A stretch of DNA of 47,723 bases from assembly GCA_964426105.1 (NCBI GenBank), contig CAYRPB010000001.1:1-47723 (forward strand), written 5' to 3'. Position numbers and translations under genes: made by a program. Position 1 is the stretch's first letter, and every line of letters starts with the position of its first letter. A model generated the notes under the pieces. It was not told the origin of the DNA. It was given only the letters and a program-made list of their open reading frames with translations, and did not search any database. Below, piece by piece: positions 3,801-38,775 of the stretch. The DNA comes from an uncultured Clostridia bacterium. Lineage in GTDB: Bacteria > Bacillota > Clostridia > Christensenellales > Borkfalkiaceae.

Positions 3801-5081
3801 ATGGCAAAAGGTAAAATCGGCGGGTTGATTAACCGAATGATTATGGGCTCGGAAAAATCCGAAGGATATGCTCGTTCTACTTTGCCCAGCAATCGTTGGG
3901 CGTTATTTGGAGATATCTTCAAGGGGAATTTAACGCGGTTACTCGGGATCAATCTTTTGATCTTGGTATTTTTTATTCCCTTGTTTCTCGTTTTGTTTTA
4001 TAAACAATCTTACGGGCTTTATGTGGGGGGTAATACGCCGTTTTCCCAAAACGTAGGAATCGGCTACCCGATCATTCCCGATATGACGGGCGTAACCGAA
4101 CAGGTAAACGTAATCGTCGTGTTGAGAACCTACGTTTTTCTGCCGTTGGCGGCAGTTATCGCGGCGGTCGGCGTATCCGGCGGAGCGTATGTTATTCGTA
4201 ACATGGTTTGGACTGAGGGTATTTTTGTCGCAAATGATTTTTGGCGAGGAATAAAACAGAACTTCGGCGTTATCGTCTGTGCATTGATGTTCTTTTCCGT
4301 ATTCTTTTTGTTGGGGAAGATTTCTCTTGCTTATACCGATTTAATGCTTGCTCTGGGGCAGGATAACGAATGGTTGTTGTGGATCGCAAAGGGTGCGACT
4401 TATATCGTGCTCGGTCTTTTAACGATCATGACGTTTTGGATGATATCGATGGGCGTTACGTATCAACTCGGTTTTTGGAAATTGTTAAAGAATTCCTTTT
4501 TAATGACGATTTCTTTGTTACCGACCAACGTTTTCTTCTTGTTTTTAAGTTTGATTTCGTTTATATTGGTCTATATCGGTAGCATCTTTACGATGATCGG
4601 TTATATTTTGATTCTGACGTTCGGTTTTTCCGTCGGCTTGTTGGCTTGGACGGATTATAGCCATTGGGTGTTTGATAAATATATCAATGATAAAGTTCCC
4701 GGGGCGCAGAAGAATCGCGGAATTTACGAAAAGGTCGGAAAGGACGATGCGGAGTCGATTAAACGGTATAAAGAGCAGATGCAACAGTTCGGGCGTTCTA
4801 ATTTGACGTTGCGTCCGATAAAGCCGATTACGGACGAAGAATTGACGTTGGTGGAATTACCGACAACGTTTAACCGTTCGGACTTGCAGAGATTGCAGGA
4901 GAGCAAAGAGGCAATTTATAAGGATTCCGAAGAGTACGTTCTTGCGCATAAGGATGAAGAGCAATATCAGTTGACGGAAGAAGAAAAGCAAATGGAAGCC
5001 GATCGCGAAAAACGAAAAGAGGAAGCGAGAAAACTTCTCGAAAAGAAAGAGAAGAAAGCGCGTAAGAAAAAGGATCACTGA
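3801..5081 (+). CDS. Polytopic membrane protein (possibly DUF624/YesL-like) with a long charged C-terminal tail
   Basis: 426 aa. The N-terminal segment FGDIFKGNLTRLLGINLLILVFFIPLF resembles YesL-type proteins. Several hydrophobic spans are followed by a hydrophilic tail of about 135 aa ending EKRKEEARKLLEKKEKKARKKKDH. Good RBS. The family call is tentative. Confidence 0.5.
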   Translation: MAKGKIGGLINRMIMGSEKSEGYARSTLPSNRWALFGDIFKGNLTRLLGINLLILVFFIPLFLVLFYKQSYGLYVGGNTPFSQNVGIGYPIIPDMTGVTEQVNVIVVLRTYVFLPLAAVIAAVGVSGGAYVIRNMVWTEGIFVANDFWRGIKQNFGVIVCALMFFSVFFLLGKISLAYTDLMLALGQDNEWLLWIAKGATYIVLGLLTIMTFWMISMGVTYQLGFWKLLKNSFLMTISLLPTNVFFLFLSLISFILVYIGSIFTMIGYILILTFGFSVGLLAWTDYSHWVFDKYINDKVPGAQKNRGIYEKVGKDDAESIKRYKEQMQQFGRSNLTLRPIKPITDEELTLVELPTTFNRSDLQRLQESKEAIYKDSEEYVLAHKDEEQYQLTEEEKQMEADREKRKEEARKLLEKKEKKARKKKDH

Positions 5082-9209: not shown

Positions 9210-10226
9210 GTGAAAAGTTTTTATCAAATCGTCAGTTCCTCGCTGATTGTTATCGGAAGCGTAATCGGGGCGGGGTTTATTTCGGGAAGAGAAATCGTAA
9301 GTTTTTTTTCGGGAGCGATTTTAATCCCGTCCGTGTATTTAACGGGCTTGATTTTTTTCTTTGCTACGTTGATGCTCTTTCGCGTCGGCACTGTATGGGG
9401 AGATGAAACGGTCGCAAACAAGGCGATCTTCGGGCGATTTTATCCGCTTTTAGAGGGATTTATTTTACTTTCCTGTTTTATTTCCTTTGCGAGTATGTTG
9501 GCCGGACTGGATGCGCTTTCCGAAAGTTTTTTGGGAAGCGTTCCTGTTTTTTCGATCGGGGGAATGATTGCCGCTACGATTAGTTTGAAACGCGGAATCA
9601 AGGGGATCGCCGTCGTGAATTTTATTATGGTTCCTTTTATGGTCGGCGCGGTTTTATGCTTCTTGTTTCAAAAGGGCGAGTTTGTTGTTTTTTCGGCAGG
9701 AGTCAGCGGAACAAAAGATTTTAAGATTGTTCTATACGCTGCAATGAACCTTTTTTCGGCTTCGCAGGTGATTATATCGTTAGGTTCTGAAATTGATAGG
9801 AAATCTCAGATGATTTCGTCTTTGATTCTGTCTGTCGTATTGTGTTTTTTGATTTTTTTAATAGCCGCTGCGGTAGCGTTTGAAGGGGCAAATGCGGAAA
9901 ACGCCGATATGCCGCTTTTGTATTTGATAAGCGAAAATAAGTCGTTCGGAGTCGTGTTCGGCGTTATTGTTTTTTTCGGGATTTTTACGACGTTGATTAC
10001 CGCTTATTACCCTTTATATCGCTTTGCTTATGAGCGGAAAAAGAGTATCGGCGTTATCGTTGTGTGTGTGATTTCTTTTTTGTTTTCGAGAATCGGGTTG
10101 AAGACAATTGTCGATTATGTTTATCCCGTTCAGGGAATGATGGGATTGATTTATCTTGTTTTTTGCGCGGTATATATGTTTCGCGGAGAGCATGGTAAAA
10201 ATAAAACGTCGTATCGTGCCTTGTGA
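9210..10226 (+). CDS. YkvI-family-like polytopic membrane protein
   Basis: 338 aa, GTG start. The N-terminal IGSVIGAGFISGREIVSFF resembles the YkvI-type signature (GAGFATGREI). About 10 hydrophobic spans. The RBS is weak, so the start is uncertain. Confidence 0.55.
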   Translation: MKSFYQIVSSSLIVIGSVIGAGFISGREIVSFFSGAILIPSVYLTGLIFFFATLMLFRVGTVWGDETVANKAIFGRFYPLLEGFILLSCFISFASMLAGLDALSESFLGSVPVFSIGGMIAATISLKRGIKGIAVVNFIMVPFMVGAVLCFLFQKGEFVVFSAGVSGTKDFKIVLYAAMNLFSASQVIISLGSEIDRKSQMISSLILSVVLCFLIFLIAAAVAFEGANAENADMPLLYLISENKSFGVVFGVIVFFGIFTTLITAYYPLYRFAYERKKSIGVIVVCVISFLFSRIGLKTIVDYVYPVQGMMGLIYLVFCAVYMFRGEHGKNKTSYRAL

Positions 10227-10546: not shown

Positions 10547-11683
10547 ATGGTTATCGTAAAAGAAGTATTAAACAAAAAAGACATGAGGTTATTTGCTACA
10601 TATCCTTTGAAGTTATATAAAAATTGTCCGTATTACGTACCCTCTTTGCGGTCGGACGAATTTAATACGCTGAATCCGAATAAAAATTTCAGTTTAGAGG
10701 AATGTGATTGCAAGTGTTTTCTCGCTTATCGCGACGGCGAACTTGTCGGAAGAATTGCCGGAATTATCAATCATGCGTATAACCGTATAAACAATAAAAA
10801 ATGTATTCGTTTTTCGAGATTTGACTGTATTGACGATATTGAAGTGTTTCGGGTTTTGTTGTCTGCGGTAGAACGATACGGTGCGCAAAACGGCATGGAT
10901 ACGATTCACGGACCGTGGGGATTTAACGATACGGACAGAGAGGGGTTGTTGACGTACGGATTTGATAAACGCAGTACGTATGCTACCAATTATTATTATC
11001 CGTATTTTTCTGAAAAAATGCCGCTGCTAGGGTATTCGGACGAATCAAAGTGGTTAGAACGTAGTTTTTCTATTCCCAAAGTTCCGTATGAGAGAATTAC
11101 GAGAATCAGCGAACAGTTGAAACAAAAGTTAAACATTCGCGACGTTGCGGAAACGATGACGATTAAAGAGATTGTTACGCAATATGGCGACGGTTTCTTC
11201 GATACTTTGAACGACGCGTACGGACATTTGGACGGCTATGTTCCGGTTGAGGGAAAAGCGAAAGAGAATGTATTGAAACAGTTTGCAACCATTGCCAATA
11301 CGCGGTATATTAGTTTTCTCGTAGATGAGAAAGAAGAGGTCGCCGGATTCGGTATCGTATTGCCGTCGATTTGCGACGCTTTGATTAAGCATAAGGGAAA
11401 ATTGTTCCCGACGGGATTTATCAACGTGCTGTATTCGATCAAAAAACCGAAAGAACTTGAAATGGCTTTGATCGGAATTAAATCGTCCTATAAAAATTCG
11501 GGGATCAACTCCATTATTATCAATCGGATTATGATGAATATTATGGAGGACGGAATCGAACACTTGGAATCCAATCCGATGTTGGAAACCAATCTTGCGA
11601 TTCAGCAGCAATGGAAATTTGCCGAAAATGAAATAATTAAACGGAGGCAGACTTATATCAAACCGATAGAGGTTGCCGAATAA
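10547..11683 (+). CDS. Uncharacterised GNAT-like N-acetyltransferase family protein
   Basis: 378 aa. The N-terminal pattern ([32 protein letters not shown]...[18 protein letters not shown]) matches a family I recall being annotated as GNAT/N-acetyltransferase. No substrate can be inferred. Confidence 0.5.
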
Positions 11684-19312: not shown

Positions 19313-19358
19313 GGAATGATCCTTTTTATGGCATGATGCGAGAAATAAGGAGAATCTG

Positions 19359-21023
19359 TTGAATAAAACGTTATTACATAAATTAAAAGAAGCATTGCTT
19401 GCTGTTTTACCGATTACGATCATCATCTTGATTTTGAATTTTTCGGTTGCTCCGATGGATCGTTATCAGTTGTATAGTTTTTTGATCGGAGCGGTGTTTT
19501 TAATCCTCGGAATGGGGTTGTATTCCTTGGGGTGTGATACGTCCGTTGAACCGATTGGCGGACATATCGGTGCGAAAATAACCGAATCTAAAAAGATTTG
19601 GTTGATTTTGGCTGTTTGTTTTGTTCTCGGGGTTATCGTGACGATTGCCGAACCCGATCTTACCGTCCTTGCAACGCAAGTCGCCGGCATGATCGATAAA
19701 TGGGAATTGATTTTGACAGTGGCATTCGGCGTTGGTTTTTTTATGGTAATCTACGTATTGAGGACGGTATTAAAAATCAATCTGAATTTCGTTTTGATTT
19801 TTTTCTACGGCGTTTTGTTTTTATTGGCGGCATTTGTCGATGCGGGGTTTGTTCCGCTTGCCTTTGATTCGGGCGGTGTTACGACCGGCCCGATTACCGT
19901 GCCCTTTATTATGGCGCTCGGAGTGGGGATTTCGTCTGTTTTGGGCGGAAAAAACAGCCAAGATAACAGTTTCGGTATGATCGGCGTATGTTCGATCGGA
20001 CCGATTATTGCCGTTTTGATTTTGGGCTTGATTCATGACGTATCTTCGTTTGATTATGCTCTTTCCGTTCCGGAAACGTTTGGCAGTTTCGGAGAGGTTA
20101 TGGCGTTTTACATGAAAAGTTTGCCACATTATTTGGGAGAAGTAGCGATCGCGCTTTCTCCGATTGTTGGTTTTTTTGTGATTTTTCAGATTTTTGTTTT
20201 GAAATTGCCGTTAAAGCAATTGTTGAAAATCATTGTCGGAATTCTTTATACATATATCGGATTGTCGATTTTTTTGACGGGCGTTAACGTAGGTTTTATG
20301 TCGGCAGGGCAATATATCGGCGCGGAATTGGCTAAGGCAAATCGTTGGTTGATTATTCCGATTGGAATGATCGTCGGTGCGTGTATTGTTTTTGCAGAGC
20401 CTGCGGTTCACGTCTTGAACAAGCAGGTGGAAGAAATAACGGGTGGAACGATCACCCGATCTACCATGTTGATGGTGCTTGCAGCCTCTATGGCTTGCGC
20501 GTTGGGGCTTTCCATGTTGCGAGTCGTTACGGGAATCAGTATATGGTATATTATATTGCCCGGATATGCGATTGCTTTGACTATTTCTTTCTTTGTACCG
20601 AAGATATTTACGGCGATTGCGTTCGATTCCGGCGGAGTCGCTTCAGGACCGATGACGGCAACGTTCTTATTGCCGTTTGCGATCGGTGCTTGTTCGGAGA
20701 TAAGCGGAACGTCCGCTATCATGACGGATGCGTTCGGACTTGTTGCGTTGGTGGCGATGACGCCGTTGTTGACGGTACAAATTCTCGGGCTTGTTTATAA
20801 GTTGCATACCGCAAAAGCAACGAAAGTCGCTGCAAAACAATTCAAGGAACTTCTTGCGGAAGAGGGAAATGTTATTGAATTAGCGGAATATAATCCTGAA
20901 GAAAGTGTTAATATCGAAAAAAGAGGACGGCTAAAAACGAAAATCAAACGAGCGGAAGAGCGTGTAAAGCGAATCGTGAAGCAGAGAAAAGAAAAAAACG
21001 ATAAGGAGAAATCCGATGAATGA
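19359..21023 (+). CDS. DUF1538-type polytopic membrane protein (two fused DUF1538-like halves) with a K/E-rich tail
   Basis: 554 aa, TTG start 5 nt after AAGGAGA. Two homologous halves each carry AEP(D/A)..VL..QV and AFDSGGV(T/A)(T/S)GP(I/M)T motifs. C-terminal tail KRGRLKTKIKRAEERVKRIVKQRKEKNDKEKSDE. The family call is from memory of DUF1538 annotations. Confidence 0.72.
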   Translation: MNKTLLHKLKEALLAVLPITIIILILNFSVAPMDRYQLYSFLIGAVFLILGMGLYSLGCDTSVEPIGGHIGAKITESKKIWLILAVCFVLGVIVTIAEPDLTVLATQVAGMIDKWELILTVAFGVGFFMVIYVLRTVLKINLNFVLIFFYGVLFLLAAFVDAGFVPLAFDSGGVTTGPITVPFIMALGVGISSVLGGKNSQDNSFGMIGVCSIGPIIAVLILGLIHDVSSFDYALSVPETFGSFGEVMAFYMKSLPHYLGEVAIALSPIVGFFVIFQIFVLKLPLKQLLKIIVGILYTYIGLSIFLTGVNVGFMSAGQYIGAELAKANRWLIIPIGMIVGACIVFAEPAVHVLNKQVEEITGGTITRSTMLMVLAASMACALGLSMLRVVTGISIWYIILPGYAIALTISFFVPKIFTAIAFDSGGVASGPMTATFLLPFAIGACSEISGTSAIMTDAFGLVALVAMTPLLTVQILGLVYKLHTAKATKVAAKQFKELLAEEGNVIELAEYNPEESVNIEKRGRLKTKIKRAEERVKRIVKQRKEKNDKEKSDE

Positions 21024-21348
21024 GAAATTAAAGGTTATGATGATTATTGCGGAACGTGAGTTTTCTAAGAAAATCATTGAAAAAATCAAAGACGTCGGAG
21101 CGAATTATATTCACGCCGTGTATGCAAGAGGAACTGCTCGTACCGATTTGCTTGAAGTTTTAGGAATCGGAGAATCGGAAAAGATTTTGATTTTAGCAAC
21201 GGTTAAAGAGAGTAGAATTGAAGAGATTTATCAATATTTGCGGAATGATTTTAAATTTGAAAAAGCAGGGAAAGGGATTGCGTTTACGATTCCCGTCGTG
21301 AGCGTAGGCGGTCCCGCCACTTTACAGATTTTATCAGGAAGAGTTTAA
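21016..21348 (+). CDS. PII-like (GlnB superfamily) protein, copy 1
   Basis: 110 aa. PII-like beta-alpha-beta layout (KVMMIIAEREFSKKIIEKIKDVGANYIHAVYARGTA ... KILILATV ... AGKGIAFTIPVVSV). Its ATG overlaps the DUF1538 stop by 8 nt. Confidence 0.68.
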   Translation: MNEKLKVMMIIAEREFSKKIIEKIKDVGANYIHAVYARGTARTDLLEVLGIGESEKILILATVKESRIEEIYQYLRNDFKFEKAGKGIAFTIPVVSVGGPATLQILSGRV

Positions 21349-21357
21349 GGAGGAATT

Positions 21358-21687
21358 ATGGAATACGAATTGATTATAACAATCGTTAATCGCGGGTTTA
21401 ATGAAATTGTAATGGATGCGGCGCGTGCGGTCGGGGCGCGCGGCGGCACGATTATCAATGCGCGCGGAGCAGGCGCTCACGAAGCGGAAAAACTGTTCGG
21501 TATTTCCGTTCAGCCGGAAAAAGAGTTGGTTTTGATTCTTGCCGAAAAAGAGGGAAAGTCTGAAATTATGTCGGCGATTATTAAGGCTGCCGGCTTGAAT
21601 ACCGTCGGACAAGGGTTATGTTTCTCCGTGGCGGTAGAGGATGTTTTGGGTGTTGCGCTTCTAAACGCTCCGAAACAAGAGGAGTAA
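21358..21687 (+). CDS. PII-like (GlnB superfamily) protein, copy 2
   Basis: 109 aa. ELIITIVNRGFNEIVMDAARAVGARGGTIINARGAG ... ELVLILAEK ... VGQGLCFSVAVEDV parallels canonical PII (IEAIIRP.K...V..AL...G..G.T...V.G.G ... GDGKIFV..VE). GGAGG RBS. Confidence 0.74.
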   Translation: MEYELIITIVNRGFNEIVMDAARAVGARGGTIINARGAGAHEAEKLFGISVQPEKELVLILAEKEGKSEIMSAIIKAAGLNTVGQGLCFSVAVEDVLGVALLNAPKQEE

Positions 21688-21725
21688 AACGCAACTCAAA
21701 ATTAGAGTGCGTTGTGTGTTTTTAT
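21688..21725 (+). terminator. Rho-independent terminator after the PII-like genes
   Basis: AACGCA(A)CTC / GAGTGCGTT stem (9 bp with 1 bulge), 7-nt loop, then GTGTGTTTTT. Confidence 0.55.
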
Positions 21726-21727
21726 GG

Positions 21728-21763
21728 AAAAGAGGCTGTGCTTTTACGAGCATAGCCTCTTTT
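21728..21763. terminator. Bidirectional hairpin terminator between the convergent PII operon and glnN
   Basis: AAAAGAGGCTGTGC / GCATAGCCTCTTTT: a 14-bp stem (one G-U), 8-nt loop, flanked by an A-run and a T-run, so it can work on either strand. Lies 27 nt beyond the glnN stop. Confidence 0.7.
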
Positions 21764-21789
21764 GCGCCTTATAAAAAGAGTTTATAAAA

Positions 21790-23865
21790 TTAGAGATAAT
21801 AAAGCAAATCGCCGTAGTCGGGGAAAGGCCAATATTTCTTAGCGGTCAACAATTCCGCTTCGTCTACGCATTTTCTGAGTTTTTCCATAGCGGGCAGAAT
21901 TGAATCCTTATAATTCTTCGCACAATCAAATCCGCTGAGTTTTTCTGCTTTTGCAATTGCTTTTTCAAGCGATTCCGTCTTGGTTGTGATTTCGGAATAC
22001 AATGCGACTAGTTTGGTGAGCGTTTCGGTATTCGATTTTATTTCCAGCTGTTTTAACTTATAGGCTGTTTCCGATAATTCGCCTAAATAGTCGTTAATCG
22101 CAGGAAGAATCGATTTCTTTACCATATCGATTGCGGTTAAAGCCTCGATATGAATAATTTTGGAGTAGTTTTCCAAGAAGATTTCTTTACGGGATTGTAA
22201 TTCCGTTTCGGTAAAGATTCCGTGCTTTCCGAAGACTTCGACGTTTTTCTTATCTGTTAAATGAGGAAGTGCGTCGACAGTGGTTTTTAGATTCATTAAG
22301 CCGCGCTTTTCTGCTTCAACACTCCATTCTTCCGAATAGTTATTACCGTTAAAAATAATTCTTTTATGTTTTTTGAAAGTTTCCTTTATGATATCTTTAA
22401 CGCAGGAAGAAAGGTCGCCTGCGTGTTCCAAGCGTTCTGCGAACAGACTTAATTCTTCTGCGATAATCGTGTTGAGAACGGTATTGATATCCGCAATTGA
22501 TTGAGAAGAACCTGGCATGCGGAACTCGAATTTGTTTCCGGTAAAGGCAAACGGAGAGGTGCGATTGCGATCCGTACTGTCTTGCGGCAAACGAGGGAGT
22601 ACGTGAACGCCGATTTCTACGACGCATTTTGCGCGTTTGGAATAATTTCGATCTTCTTCGATTGCGTTGAGAATACCGGTGAGTTCATCACCGAGGAACA
22701 TAGAAACGATTGCCGGGGGGGCTTCGTTTGCGCCCAATCTGTGGTCGTTTCCGGGGCTTGCGACCGTAATGCGCAGCAAATCTTGATATTCGTCAACCGC
22801 TTTGATGACGGCTGAGAGAAAAAGAAGGAATTGTGCGTTGTCGTACGGCGTTTCGCCCGGTTCGAGTAAGTTAATACCGGTATCCGTCGAAAGAGACCAA
22901 TTGTTGTGTTTTCCGCTTCCGTTAACGCGTTCAAACGGTTTTTCGTGCAAAAGGCATTTTAATCCGTGCTTGCTTGCTATGTTTTTCATCAACTCCATTG
23001 TTAGTTGATTGTGATCGGTCGCGATATTCGTGCTGGAAAAGATGGGTGCGAGTTCGTGCTGACTGGGGGCGGCTTCGTTGTGTTTTGTTTTTGCAAGAAC
23101 GCCGAGTTTCCATAATTCTTCGTCAAGTTCTTTCATGTACGCAACAACTCTGGGTTTGATTGCACCGAAATAGTGGTCTTCCAATTCTTGTCCTTTCGGC
23201 GCGCGAGAACCGAATAACGTTCTGCCTGTAAAGACTAAATCGGGGCGTTTTGCGTAATCCGCCAAATCGACTAAAAAATATTCTTGCTCTGCACCGACGG
23301 TAGAAATAACTTTCCGAACGTCCGTTTTGCCGAATAATTTCAAAATGCGCAACGCTTCCGCGCTGATTGCTTCCATACTGCGAAGCAAAGGGGTTTTCTT
23401 GTCCAATGCCTCTCCGTTGTAACTGCAAAAAGCCGTCGGAATACAAAGAATATCGTCTTTGATAAAAGCATAAGAAGTGGGATCCCACGCAGTGTATCCG
23501 CGTGCCTCAAACGTCGAGCGGAGTCCGCCGGACGGGAAACTGGACGCGTCAGGTTCCCCCTTGATTAATTCCTTTCCGCTAAATTCCATGATTACGCCGC
23601 CGTCGGATGTGGGGGAGATAAACGAATCGTGTTTTTCAGCCGTAATGCCGGTCATGGGTTGAAACCAATGCGTAAAGTGTGTGACGCCGTGCTCGATCGC
23701 CCAATCTTTCATGGCGTTTGCGACGGCATTCGCGACTTCGATGTCCAATGCTTTGTTTTCTGCGATGCATTTTTTCAGCAAATTGTAAATGTCTTTCGGT
23801 AAGCGTTGCTTCATAATGCGATCGTTAAATACAAGACTGCCGAACAAGGTGGGAAGTTCCTTCAT
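21790..23865 (-). CDS. glnN: Glutamine synthetase, type III
   Basis: 691 aa, the length typical of GSIII. N-terminus [25 protein letters not shown]...[11 protein letters not shown] is characteristic of GlnN. AGGAGA RBS. Confidence 0.9.
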
Positions 23866-25467: not shown

Positions 25468-26040
25468 ATGGAAAGTGTGTTGTTAGCGGCGTCTTCCGAG
25501 CAGAGCGCTGTTGCAATCGGGAAACTCGTTGCAAAATACGGCGTTCACGATATCGTTTTTGTATCAAACGGTATGGAAGCACGCAGAAAATTGCTTGAAC
25601 GTGCGTTTGATTTGTTGGTAGTGAACGCGCCTCTTTCCGATGAGTACGGAGAAGCCCTAGCGCGAGACGTTTCGGCAGGGTATCGGACGCAGGTTTTGTT
25701 ATTGGTGCGTGAAAATACGGGAGAAATCGCTTATAAAATGGAGCAATGCGGTGTATTTACGCTTGAGCGCCCGATCAATCATATCGTTTTTTTTAACGTA
25801 TTAAAAATGATTAATGCGGCGCATTATAAGTTCGTACAAGTATATGAGGAGCGAGAACGATTAAAGAGTCGTTTGGAAGATATGCGGCTAATCGGTTTGG
25901 CAAAATGCCTTTTAATCGAAAAACTTTATTATACGGAAGCAGCCGCGCACAAGCAGATAGAAAAAATTGCAATGAACGAGCGAAAAAGCAAGTTGCAAGT
26001 CGCTCGTGAAATAATAGAGAAATATCGTTCTTTGGAGTAA
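25468..26040 (+). CDS. ANTAR-domain RNA-binding regulator with a degenerate (pseudo-)receiver domain
   Basis: 190 aa. C-terminal ANTAR-like helices (RLEDMRLIGLAKCLLIEKLYYTEAAAHKQIEKIAMNERKSKLQVAREII). N-terminal CheY-like fold with Asn in place of the phospho-acceptor Asp (DLLVVNAPL). Lies 5 nt after the GS-like gene. Confidence 0.82.
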   Translation: MESVLLAASSEQSAVAIGKLVAKYGVHDIVFVSNGMEARRKLLERAFDLLVVNAPLSDEYGEALARDVSAGYRTQVLLLVRENTGEIAYKMEQCGVFTLERPINHIVFFNVLKMINAAHYKFVQVYEERERLKSRLEDMRLIGLAKCLLIEKLYYTEAAAHKQIEKIAMNERKSKLQVAREIIEKYRSLE

Positions 26041-36593: not shown

Positions 36594-36605
36594 GGAGTGA
36601 ATATT

Positions 36606-37121
36606 ATGACGAATATTTATCAAGAACAGGATTTTCGTAATTGCAAAAAACAGCGTAAAAATACGTTAATATTCTTTTTTTCCGTTACCGGGGTATATGC
36701 CGCGGCAACGATCGCGCTGTTTGTTTATTATTTGTTTTTACCCTATCAGGCGTCGGAAATCACCGGATTAAAGTGGATAACGTTCGGTTTGACGGCGATT
36801 TATATTATTTTTGCTTTTATCTTTTTAGGAATTCGTTTTAGACGCGTAAATCGCTATTATCGCATGTTTAAGGATGTTGATCTCGGATTGAAAGAGGAAT
36901 GGGAAGGCAGTTTTTTGCGATTCGGCGAAACGATAGAGGTAAAAGACGGCGTGGATTTTAAATCGTTGATTTTTTCGGAGTGGAGCAATAAAAAGCAGGA
37001 TTACTTTGAACGGAAAGTTTTATTCGATGCGGAAAAGGAGTTTCCTTCGATTCGAGAGGGCGAACGGGTTAAATACGTTACGCAGGCAAATATCCTACTG
37101 AGTTACGAAATACAAAAATAA
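36606..37121 (+). CDS. Hypothetical membrane protein (2 TM + soluble C-terminal domain)
   Basis: ATG at 36606, 8 nt after AAGGAG (the ORF track uses GTG at 36597). Two hydrophobic spans, then a hydrophilic domain of about 85 aa. No recognisable motif. Confidence 0.5.
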   Translation: MTNIYQEQDFRNCKKQRKNTLIFFFSVTGVYAAATIALFVYYLFLPYQASEITGLKWITFGLTAIYIIFAFIFLGIRFRRVNRYYRMFKDVDLGLKEEWEGSFLRFGETIEVKDGVDFKSLIFSEWSNKKQDYFERKVLFDAEKEFPSIREGERVKYVTQANILLSYEIQK

Positions 37122-37419: not shown

Positions 37420-38775
37420 ATGGTTAACAAAAGCGAAATATTGGAAACGATCGAGATGATCGATAAAGAGCATTTCGACGTTCGTACGATTACAATGGGA
37501 CTATCTTTATTTTCCTGTATTCGCGCGACAGCGAAAGAAACGTCGAAATGCGTTTATGATTTTATTTGTAAACGAGCGGAAAAAATCGTCGATGTCGGTA
37601 CTGAGTTGGAGCGCGAATACGGCGTTCCTATCGTCAATAAAAGAATTTCAATTACGCCCGCGAGTTTTTTGACCGCGAATTTTGTCGGTGAAGAAGTCGT
37701 TTTGGCGAGTGCGTTAGATCGCGCTGCAAAAACGGTCGGCGTTGATTTCCTCGGAGGTTATTCTGCGTTGGTACACAAAGGAATGACGTCGGAGGAACGT
37801 TCCTTTATCGAAAGTATTCCGGAAGCGCTTGCCGTTACCGATCGCGTTTGCAGTTCGGTCAACGTGGGAACGTCGAAATCGGGAATCAATATGGACGCGG
37901 TTGCTCTGCTTGGAAAAATTATTAAAAAGACTGCCGAAAACACGTCGGAAAAAGACGGCTTGGGTTGTGCGAAATTCGTCGCATTTGCAAACGCCGTCGA
38001 AGATAATCCCTTTATGGCAGGGGCTTTTCACGGCGTGGGAGAAGGCGAAGCCGTAATTAACGTCGGCGTTTCCGGACCGGGCGTCGTACAACGCGCGATC
38101 GAAAAAATTCCGAACGGTTCTATTTCCGAACTTGCGGAAGTGATTAAAAAGACGGCTTTCAAAATTACGCGCGTAGGGCAGTTGATTGCAAGAGAGGCTT
38201 CCGCTCGTTTGCGGGCGGAATTCGGAATCGTCGATCTTTCGCTTGCCCCCACACCGGTTATGGGCGACAGCGTTGCTCATATTTTAGAGGAAATGGGGTT
38301 AGAGCACGTCGGTGCACACGGTACGACCGCCGCGCTCGCCATGTTAAATGACGCCGTAAAAAAAGGCGGCGTAATGGCAAGTTCCAACGTGGGCGGCTTG
38401 TCGGGTGCGTTCATTCCGGTCAGTGAGGATATTGGAATGATACACGCGGTAGAAGCCGGCGAGTTAACGCTCCATAAATTGGAAGCAATGACTGCCGTTT
38501 GCAGCGTCGGAATCGATATGGTTGCAATTCCCGGCGATACTCCGGCATCCACGATCAGTGCGATTATTGCAGACGAAGCGGCAATCGGCATAATTAATAA
38601 TAAGACGACGGCGGTTCGCGTAATACCCGTTCCGGGGAAAAAGGTCGGGGACTGCGTGGAGTTCGGAGGATTGCTCGGTCATGCTCCGATTATGGCGGTG
38701 CAACAAGCGAGTGCGGAAAAATTTATCGGTCGCGGCGGAAGAATGCCTGCGCCCATTCATAGTAATAAAAATTAA
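37420..38775 (+). CDS. UPF0210 (DUF711, PFL-like) family protein
   Basis: 451 aa. N-terminus [24 protein letters not shown] and overall Gly/Ala-rich composition are typical of UPF0210 proteins, which are commonly preceded by the small ACT gene. Confidence 0.78.

Follow-up and report, generated by a model that had tools for sequence, protein, structure and literature searches.

Few signal transducers are as widespread as the PII proteins, and in the GlnK-AmtB and SbtB-SbtA systems trimers of PII or PII-like proteins plug the transporters that are encoded with them. Another PII-family protein, PotN, regulates the ATPase of a polyamine transport system. The subject here is a locus of three genes in a stretch of 47,723 nucleotides (nt) from an uncultured Clostridia bacterium (contig CAYRPB010000001.1, positions 1 to 47,723; the whole stretch is called the window), which encodes a membrane protein of the DUF1538 family followed by two small PII-like proteins, PII-1 (domain type D1) and PII-2 (domain type D2). 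The three genes are one functional unit, and the regulated-transport module that they form is real and widespread. The module is best read, with fair confidence, as a secondary transporter of the DUF1538/UmpAB family that is regulated by an obligately heteromeric PII-like pair sensing an adenine nucleotide.

The sole characterized relative of the transporter is UmpAB from Halomonas zhaodongensis, which was identified in 2017 as an antiporter that exchanges Na+ (Li+, K+) for H+, on the basis of complemented E. coli KNabc cells, co-immunoprecipitation, and measurements in everted vesicles (PMC5484666). UmpAB alone gave antiport in E. coli KNabc (PMC5484666), so that a PII partner is not needed for basal transport in this homologue, which fits a regulatory role for the PII-like proteins. 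A first-pass annotation of the window had regarded DUF1538 as lacking a defined substrate, a view that this characterization and the existence of NCBIfam models have made outdated. The window transporter resembles UmpAB in belonging to the same Pfam family (PF07556), in having two homologous halves, which match UmpA and UmpB, and in sharing Gly/Phe-rich motifs. However, UmpAB is a heterodimer of two separate subunits of ~245 amino acids (aa), whereas the window protein is one fused chain of 554 aa that represents a functional analogue, a pseudo-heterodimer, and not the architecture defined for UmpAB. Additionally, no PII partner is mentioned in the UmpAB paper (PMC5484666).

The module resembles GlnK-AmtB and SbtB-SbtA in that a small protein with the PII fold is encoded directly 3' of its transporter. 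The contacts of Thr29 with the nucleoside and of Gly87 and Gly89 with the alpha-phosphate are kept in the module PIIs, and the PII-1 model structurally matches GlnK1 and SbtB. The transporter, however, is unrelated to Amt by sequence and its model does not match the SbtA fold. GlnK and SbtB are homotrimers, whereas the module features two diverged PII paralogues that would combine 1:1, and these lack the C-terminal Cys pair and the Cys-containing R-loop of SbtB.

The NifI1/NifI2 proteins form a 2:1 heterotrimer whose target is nitrogenase NifDK and in which the canonical residues for ADP and 2-oxoglutarate are preserved (PDB 9p1x; bioRxiv 10.1101/2025.09.09.675011). As in the module, the two proteins are encoded by adjacent diverged PII genes, and the NifI heteromer has non-equivalent ligand pockets. 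NifI chain 9p1x_H (105 aa) is the best PDB sequence match for both the D1 and the D2 profile and its T-loop is similarly short; 9p1x was considered as a solved member of the family and rejected, as it is NifI in the nitrogenase complex. The module differs in that its fusions would impose a 1:1 ratio, the canonical residues are gone, and the target is a membrane transporter. The cyclic di-AMP (c-di-AMP) receptor PstA/DarA (DUF970), which also has a short T-loop, is set apart by its long B-loop, which in the module PIIs is of canonical length, and no PstA/DarA chains were found among the sequence matches or the top 50 Foldseek matches.

Conservation of the Transporter-PII Linkage

Relatives with a fused transporter were collected by a scan of one genome per species, which gave at least 595 of them, and the best 80 loci were analyzed. 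These have 45-98% identity, come mostly from Christensenellales, Oscillospiraceae, and Lachnospiraceae, and include the source contig (L001). In 78 of these 80 the DUF1538 stop codon is followed on the same strand, after at most ~100 nt, by the start of PII-like open reading frames (ORFs); the other two loci stop at the contig edge, so that the linkage holds in 78 of 78 checkable loci. A second class, in which the transporter is split, was obtained by scanning metagenome contigs with a proteobacterial subunit. DUF1538-A (~231 aa), DUF1538-B (~243 aa), and a single PII-like gene (~105-118 aa) follow one another in 73 of these 80 loci, and in the remaining seven the contig ends <200 nt past the stop of the B gene (73 of 73 checkable). 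Over both classes, a PII-like gene is located immediately downstream of DUF1538 in 151 of 151 checkable loci. The same adjacency is found in all four annotated plasmid records that were inspected, which belong to Alphaproteobacteria and Peptostreptococcales. The Methylocystis and Chelativorans plasmids carry split subunits followed by a 'P-II family nitrogen regulator', and the Peptoclostridium and Paraclostridium plasmids carry a fused transporter followed by a 222-aa 'P-II family' protein. The coupling of transporter and PII is close to certain.

The modules on the Methylocystis rosea (L081) and Chelativorans (L082) plasmids lie beside IS66/IS4 transposases or heavy-metal P-type ATPase genes, and the first subunit of the latter is annotated at only 90 aa and may be decaying. 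Two metagenome-assembled genomes labeled Corallococcus (L002) and Barnesiella (L076) contain a Clostridia-type fused DUF1538 with PII, at 58% and 51% identity to the window protein, respectively. These are probably cases of binning contamination or mislabeling and less probably of horizontal transfer.

Natural Fusions and Stoichiometry

In ~68 of the 78 fused-class species PII-1 and PII-2 form one ORF of 222-289 aa, with D1 first in 69 of 70 cases and a median linker of ~5 aa. The pair is unfused in the window and its closest relatives (L001-L005, L008, L018, L020, L025). C-terminal PII-like domains are fused onto the transporter itself in 8 of the best 150 family representatives, and P0252 (720 aa) and P0257 (709 aa) are single chains with the order DUF1538x2-D1-D2. 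These natural fusions argue that D1, D2, and the transporter would act as one 1:1:1 complex, with the PII domains at the cytoplasmic C-terminus, a placement that agrees with the distribution of Lys and Arg described below. They also argue for D1/D2 as a 1:1 heteromer rather than a homotrimer. The first-pass annotation had proposed a transporter with a dedicated PII-like partner and suggested that co-occurrence and fusion be checked; the conserved adjacency and the direct fusions strongly support that proposal. Its suggestion that the PII-like pair is possibly hetero-oligomeric is supported by the D1-D2 fusions.

The PII-like Proteins

PII-2 scores 34.7 bits against the Pfam P-II family (PF00543), above the cut-off of 25, whereas PII-1 reaches 22.4 bits and none of 22 homologues of PII-1 has a precomputed Pfam match. 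The domain assignments made at first pass therefore held by Pfam for DUF1538 and PII-2 and not for PII-1. Over its whole length, the profile built from 61 D1 domains aligns to that built from 61 D2 domains (hhalign probability 98.9%, E 1e-17). Among the many solved structures of PII proteins that the D2 profile matches, the NifI chain ranks first (E 1.7e-5), and both profiles match canonical PII, GlnK, and NifI structures; SbtB and CPII are not among the D1/D2 sequence-profile matches. The AlphaFold2 (AF2) model of PII-1 features a beta-alpha-beta-beta-alpha-beta arrangement with a predicted local distance difference test score (pLDDT) of 70. All of its top 50 Foldseek matches are PII-family proteins, among them TTHA0516, PotN, GlnK1, SbtB, and CPII (probability 1.00, template modeling (TM) score 0.5-0.69). 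The D1-D2 profile match and the PII-only Foldseek matches place PII-1 in the PII superfamily despite its sub-threshold Pfam score, and both PII-1 and PII-2 are members of this superfamily at the fold level.

The best structural matches of PII-1 are TTHA0516 (PDB 2cz4) and PotN (PDB 7o4x), with E values of 6e-6 and 3e-5 and TM scores of 0.58-0.69. The likeness is in fold only and neither protein belongs to the PII family of the module. The structure 2cz4 was considered as a solved family member and rejected, as it was not recovered by the sequence profile.

The Ligand-Binding Pocket

In canonical PII proteins Thr29 of the neighboring subunit binds adenine and the ribose 2'-OH, and the alpha-phosphate is bound through the main-chain amides of Gly87 and Gly89 (PMC7919409, PMC8395244). 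The residues R38, Q39, K90, R101, and R103 are used to bind the beta and gamma phosphates, Mg, and 2-oxoglutarate (PMC8395244). The fate of these positions was followed in an alignment of 61 D1, 61 D2, and 55 non-redundant single PIIs with GlnB from E. coli and Synechococcus. The beta-2 GGT motif (canonical G27-M28-T29) is conserved at 100/94/100% in the single PIIs and at 100/100/100% in the 61 D2 homologues, and is not conserved in D1. The B-loop residues G87 and G89 show the opposite pattern, with 90/100% in the single PIIs, 90/96% in D1, and only 16/39% Gly in D2. All three groups retain K58 (91-100%) and F92 (68-100%). D1, D2, and the single PIIs alike have lost R38, Q39, K90 (replaced by Ile or Leu), R101 (replaced by Gly), and R103. 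The T-loop is ~6 residues shorter than in canonical PII and lacks a site for modification at Y51 or S49; in the Y51 column D1 is gapped, and D2 and the single PIIs have Ile or Leu.

In the window, PII-1 keeps the B-loop G85-x-G87, F90, K56, and a conserved short T-loop (G39-T40-A41...L49-G50), and has Y-I-H in place of the GGT motif. PII-2 keeps G29-G30-T31 in beta-2 and E54-K55, of which K55 corresponds to canonical K58. The retention of the Thr29, Gly87, and Gly89 contacts, together with the loss of the triphosphate-side residues, suggests that the DUF1538-linked PIIs keep a pocket for a nucleoside and an alpha-phosphate and not the triphosphate/Mg/2-oxoglutarate extension. Within the heteromer, the full ancestral set would be present only where the B-loop of D1 meets the beta-2 strand of D2, which predicts one type of functional site per D1/D2 pair.

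The DUF1538-linked PIIs also feature a family-specific motif in the beta1-alpha1 loop, at the columns of K9-K12 of E. coli GlnB. The motif is R-K-G-W-G in the single PIIs (92/87/100/100/98%) and N-x-G-[YF] in D2, and D1 has Arg at the P10 column (88%). Arg9 of Methanococcales GlnK contacts 2-oxoglutarate (PMC8395244), so that this loop may form part of a new effector site.

The DUF1538 Transporter

The transporter matches Pfam DUF1538 in two stretches with 453 bits against a cut-off of 22.6 (E 1e-136). Repeat 1 covers ~aa 4-225 and repeat 2 ~aa 244-480, and a Lys/Glu-rich cytoplasmic tail follows (aa 481-554). The NCBIfam models of UmpA (NF041627) and UmpB (NF041628) give 170 and 153 bits, well under their equivalog cut-offs of 490 and 500, and by these scores the protein is a distant relative of UmpAB and not an orthologue. 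In both repeats, helix breaks coincide with an F-D-S-G-G-x-x-x-G-P motif and an invariant A-E-P motif, and both motifs recur in the subunits of the split class. Of the invariant carboxylates in these motifs, E98 and D170 belong to repeat 1, E347 and D423 to repeat 2; such pseudo-symmetric buried carboxylates would be typical of cation- or proton-coupled carriers. In the distribution of Lys and Arg, the N-terminus (+3.4), the first loop of repeat 2 (+3.4), and the C-terminal tail (+4.8) are positive, and the linker between the repeats is acidic. By the positive-inside rule this implies a topology with the N- and C-termini inside and the two repeats inverted.

The AF2 model of the transporter (pLDDT 79, predicted TM score 0.74) is all-helical with helix breaks at the FDSGG motifs. 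A Foldseek search of this model against the PDB gave no match at E 0.001 or better, the best matches being MurJ, MATE, and CLC proteins with TM scores of 0.1-0.2 (E 0.024 for the top match), and assignment of a substrate from the fold was dropped for that reason. No DUF1538 sequence is present in the PDB, and no solved structure of any member of the module families was found. DUF1538 has been listed with Mrp, Trk, and Kdp among the Pfam features that are predictive of growth pH (PMC13255231). The distant homology to UmpAB, the invariant carboxylate pairs, and this listing make monovalent cation/H+ exchange the likeliest class of substrate, a tentative assignment that is the weakest step of the analysis.

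The C-terminal tail of the window protein (74 aa, positions 20799-21020) is modeled as low-confidence helices and a disordered segment at aa 491-530 with pLDDT <50. Low-complexity charged C-terminal tails of 60-170 aa, with no fused PII, are present in many fused DUF1538 proteins (P0145, P0146, P0150, P0156, P0189), and the charged tail might be a tether or docking arm for the PII pair. P0228 (860 aa) features an insert of ~340 aa between the DUF1538 repeats, in the linker that faces outwards by the positive-inside analysis. In P0216, P0264, and P0170 DUF1538 is cut off in repeat 2 and is followed by unrelated soluble sequence; these are probably assembly chimeras or frameshifts and not real fusions.

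Genomic Context

Homologues of the glutamine synthetase (GS) and ANTAR genes that lie next to the module in the window are located near it in only 2 of the 80 fused-class loci, those of the source genome and of L055, and in the latter they are 2.6 kb away in another arrangement. Clustering of the flanking ORFs of the 80 loci revealed no gene family in more than 6 of them, and inference of a substrate from neighbors was dropped. Genes for carboxysomes, RuBisCO, or carbonic anhydrase are not conserved around the module in these loci, and the upstream regions have no common sequence except among close relatives. A riboswitch was also considered as a source of information on the substrate or signal and was discarded: Rfam at the gathering threshold gave no match anywhere in the window, the leader of the GS-like gene included, and in the 13 loci with the longest leaders only unrelated matches on the opposite strand (T-box, TPP element, tRNAs, and tmRNA). 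The GC content is flat at ~0.43 over 14-27 kb, and recent horizontal transfer was rejected on that ground as the cause of the proximity of the module to the GS genes.

The first-pass annotation had tied the module to nitrogen or carbon status through its neighbors. This link is without support, given the rarity of the GS context, the lack of a conserved neighbor or of a riboswitch or leader, the flat GC content, and the loss of the 2-oxoglutarate and Mg-ATP residues, and the proximity of glnN looks incidental. For the same reasons of context and binding-site residues, the label 'P-II family nitrogen regulator' is probably misleading for these genes.

Proposed Mechanism and Alternative Explanations

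The regulatory mechanism that we infer is well motivated. A DUF1538/UmpAB-type transporter with two homologous, oppositely oriented halves in one chain would be served by PII-1 (D1) and PII-2 (D2) as a dedicated cytoplasmic regulatory subunit, a hetero-oligomer. Judging from the natural fusions, D1 and D2 would assemble 1:1 and dock at the cytoplasmic face and the C-terminal end of the transporter. From the conserved residues and the geometry of the pocket in published structures, a small effector of the adenine-nucleotide type would be expected to bind where the B-loop side of D1 (G-x-G, F, and K) faces the beta-2 Thr of D2. Occupancy of this site would alter the short T-loops so that transport is opened or blocked, by analogy only with GlnK-AmtB and SbtB-SbtA. 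The signal is probably energy or nucleotide status and not 2-oxoglutarate or nitrogen status. A more detailed proposal can be put forward as possible, although with less confidence than the reading as a whole: the DUF1538-associated PIIs may constitute a large, undescribed PII subfamily, which in Clostridia would be an obligate 1:1 heteromer arising by complementary loss, with one composite effector site per pair, a role in gating the transporter, and a mono-/diphosphate or cyclic adenine nucleotide, in place of ATP and 2-oxoglutarate, as effector.

Several observations weigh against this reading of the module. The pocket residues R38, Q39, K90, R101, and R103 are all lost, so the effector may not be a nucleotide. 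The PII-2 of the window still has G83-x-G85, so that in the source genome the complementary degeneration is half visible, with only the GGT loss in PII-1 to be seen. The model of PII-1 is only moderately confident, and no solved fold matches that of the transporter, so its architecture gives no independent hint of a substrate. Transfer of the substrate from UmpAB is weak, as the window protein and the split-type pairs score 80-170 bits against the UmpA/UmpB cut-offs (80-131 bits for the sampled split-type relatives), and the evidence for UmpAB activity is a single heterologous study (PMC5484666). Additionally, the loci sampled come from two clades of a family that comprises 3982 clusters at 50% identity (E <=1e-3).

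The alternative that survives best, though unlikely, is that the PII-like proteins are structural or assembly subunits, such as a cytoplasmic cap or an oligomerization scaffold, that have lost ligand sensing. Most of the canonical effector-binding side chains are indeed gone, strict 1:1 fusions would suit a fixed structural role equally well, and UmpAB is functional without a co-expressed PII. However, the near-invariant residues are those of the pocket (T29 at 100%, the glycines 87 and 89, K58, and F92), and the complementary retention in D1 and D2 is hard to account for without selection on an interface pocket. Moreover, nucleotide binding is common to all the characterized transporter-paired PII-like proteins that were compared: GlnK, SbtB, and CPII, whose ligands are named in the titles of their PDB entries, and PotN.

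Slightly less probable again is an explanation that keeps the same architecture and changes the substrate, to inorganic carbon or another anion as in SbtA/SbtB or DAB/CPII, or to an organic solute, with the activity of UmpAB being a side activity or specific to its clade. SbtB and CPII are PII-like proteins that serve inorganic carbon transport and are among the structural matches of the PII-1 model, the kinship to UmpAB is very distant, and the laboratory behind UmpAB has used the same KNabc assay in reporting Na+/H+ antiport for several unrelated families. The D1 and D2 sequence profiles, however, match canonical PII, GlnK, and NifI and not SbtB or CPII; no solved transporter fold was matched at E 0.001, and the list of the 50 best matches has no SbtA chain, even though the structures searched include an SbtA-SbtB complex (7egk). 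The two pseudo-symmetric invariant carboxylate pairs are more typical of cation or proton binding, and none of the inorganic carbon genes sought near the loci is conserved there.

A carrier for ammonium, an amino acid, or another nitrogen compound, gated by nitrogen/carbon status through sensing of 2-oxoglutarate and ATP/ADP and working alongside the glutamine synthetases, is very improbable: PII proteins are classical nitrogen regulators and the module is a neighbor of glnN and the GS-like/ANTAR pair, as it is within ~3 kb in one other species (L055), but this neighborhood is confined to two loci and rearranged in the second, no neighbor family is conserved, the residues for Mg-ATP and 2-oxoglutarate are gone family-wide, the Y51 modification site is deleted or replaced, homology to Amt is lacking, and UmpAB transports alkali cations.

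Relation to Published Work

The preferred reading, a DUF1538 transporter regulated by a heteromeric PII-like pair, joins known and new elements. The adjacency of DUF1538 and PII is already visible in databases under the labels 'DUF1538 domain-containing protein' and 'P-II family nitrogen regulator', and regulation of a co-encoded transporter by a PII-like protein is already known. New are the family of the transporter, the altered pocket, and a PII that is heteromeric or tandem and has degenerated in a complementary manner. No paper connecting DUF1538 or UmpAB with PII was found in the searchable literature, and a 2023 preprint on PII as a 'valve plug' has no mention of the DUF1538 module. A literature match to a Borrelia 'PII-like' protein was rejected, as it concerns an unrelated YitT/DUF2179 protein.

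If the reading is true, the module would be the third transporter family under PII plugging, after GlnK-AmtB and SbtB-SbtA, and would join NifI1,2 as a second heteromeric PII system that differs from it in stoichiometry. DUF1538 is a large family, as the number of clusters given above indicates, and is common in gut Clostridia. The PII-like pair would also be a clear case of subfunctionalization, in which one ancestral PII appears to have been split into complementary halves that were re-fused in most species. The residues that the analysis singles out are T31 of PII-2, G85, G87, and K56 of PII-1, and E98, D170, E347, and D423 of the transporter. The model of the transporter has no solved relative, so that solving the complex experimentally would probably reveal a new type of transporter architecture.

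Organization of the Locus

The features of the locus and its neighbors are listed in Table 1. The layout described at first pass, with its three ORFs, overlapping and closely spaced genes, two hairpins past PII-2, tail-to-tail arrangement with glnN, and distance of ~2.5 kb to the GS-like/ANTAR pair, was reproduced from the sequence, RNA folding, coordinates, and Pfam.

Table 1. Positions of the module, its signals, and adjacent genes (window numbering; the three module ORFs are on the + strand; RBS, ribosome binding site).
Feature	Position	Strand	Basis or remark
DUF1538 gene RBS, AAGGAG	19349..19354	+	5 nt 5' of TTG start; read from sequence
Fused two-repeat DUF1538 (UmpAB-family) membrane transporter, 554 aa	19359..21023	+	Pfam, NCBIfam, AF2
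PII-1 RBS, AAGGAG	21003..21008	+	Inside transporter gene 3' end; 7 nt 5' of ATG 21016
PII-1 (domain type D1), 110 aa	21016..21348	+	Profile-profile comparison, AF2, Foldseek
PII-2 RBS, GGAGG	21349..21353	+	Occupies most of the 9-nt intergenic gap
PII-2 (domain type D2), 109 aa	21358..21687	+	Pfam P-II; family profile vs PDB
Terminator hairpin 1, then GU/U-rich tract	21688..21713	+	RNA fold of 21685-21775
Hairpin 2, stronger, stem ~16 bp, A-run 5', T-run 3'	21726..21764		RNA fold
glnN (GSIII)	21790-23865	-	Pfam; tail-to-tail with module
GS-I-like gene, 430 aa	24170-25462		Pfam; starts 2.5 kb from module
ANTAR response regulator	25468-26040		Pfam

The TTG start of the transporter gene is supported by homologues that align from residue 1. 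Its stop codon (TGA, 21021-21023) overlaps the PII-1 gene by 8 nt, which fits translational coupling of the transporter and PII-1, and PII-2 starts 9 nt past the PII-1 stop. The two hairpins fold jointly with -36.8 kcal/mol (z -6.6), and 0 of 200 shuffled sequences fold as well; explicit RNA folding found both, and a simple consensus terminator scanner picked up neither. The A-run and T-run that flank hairpin 2 and its site between convergent genes suggest that it is probably a bidirectional terminator shared with glnN.

Only 46 nt (19313-19358) separate the ftsY stop from the DUF1538 start, and neither a promoter-like site nor a terminator was found there on the + strand. Co-transcription of the module with rnc-smc-ftsY is therefore possible in the source genome. 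In 34 of 76 loci from other species, the upstream neighbor of the module lies on the opposite strand.

Neighboring Genes in the Window

The other genes of the window were surveyed by a Pfam sweep of 30 ORFs and by searches with a PII hidden Markov model (HMM) and GlnB over all ORFs of >=60 aa. The housekeeping genes guaA, sepF, asd, hslO, plsX, rnc, smc, ftsY, pyrG, sbcCD, and dnaB are present, as is a class II aminoacyl-tRNA synthetase of the Asp/Lys/Asn type. The Pfam sweep together with the PII HMM and GlnB searches found no AmtB and no further PII gene, in agreement with the earlier statement that amtB and glnK/glnB are missing from the window, and the Pfam-swept ORFs include no nif genes and no SbtA-family match. 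For six sizeable ORFs of 104-426 aa, Pfam gave no match with an E value of 1e-4 or better, and such ORFs are located at 3801-5081, 9210-10226, 10547-11683, 36597-37121, and 37714-38591; the segment 8367-9209 is a gap without ORFs.

The GS-I-like protein scores under the GlnA equivalog cut-off. The ANTAR regulator starts 5 nt past the GS-I-like gene and its receiver domain matches weakly. A leader of 304 nt (23866 onward) lies between the GS-I-like gene and the divergent glnN, and could be a candidate target of ANTAR antitermination.

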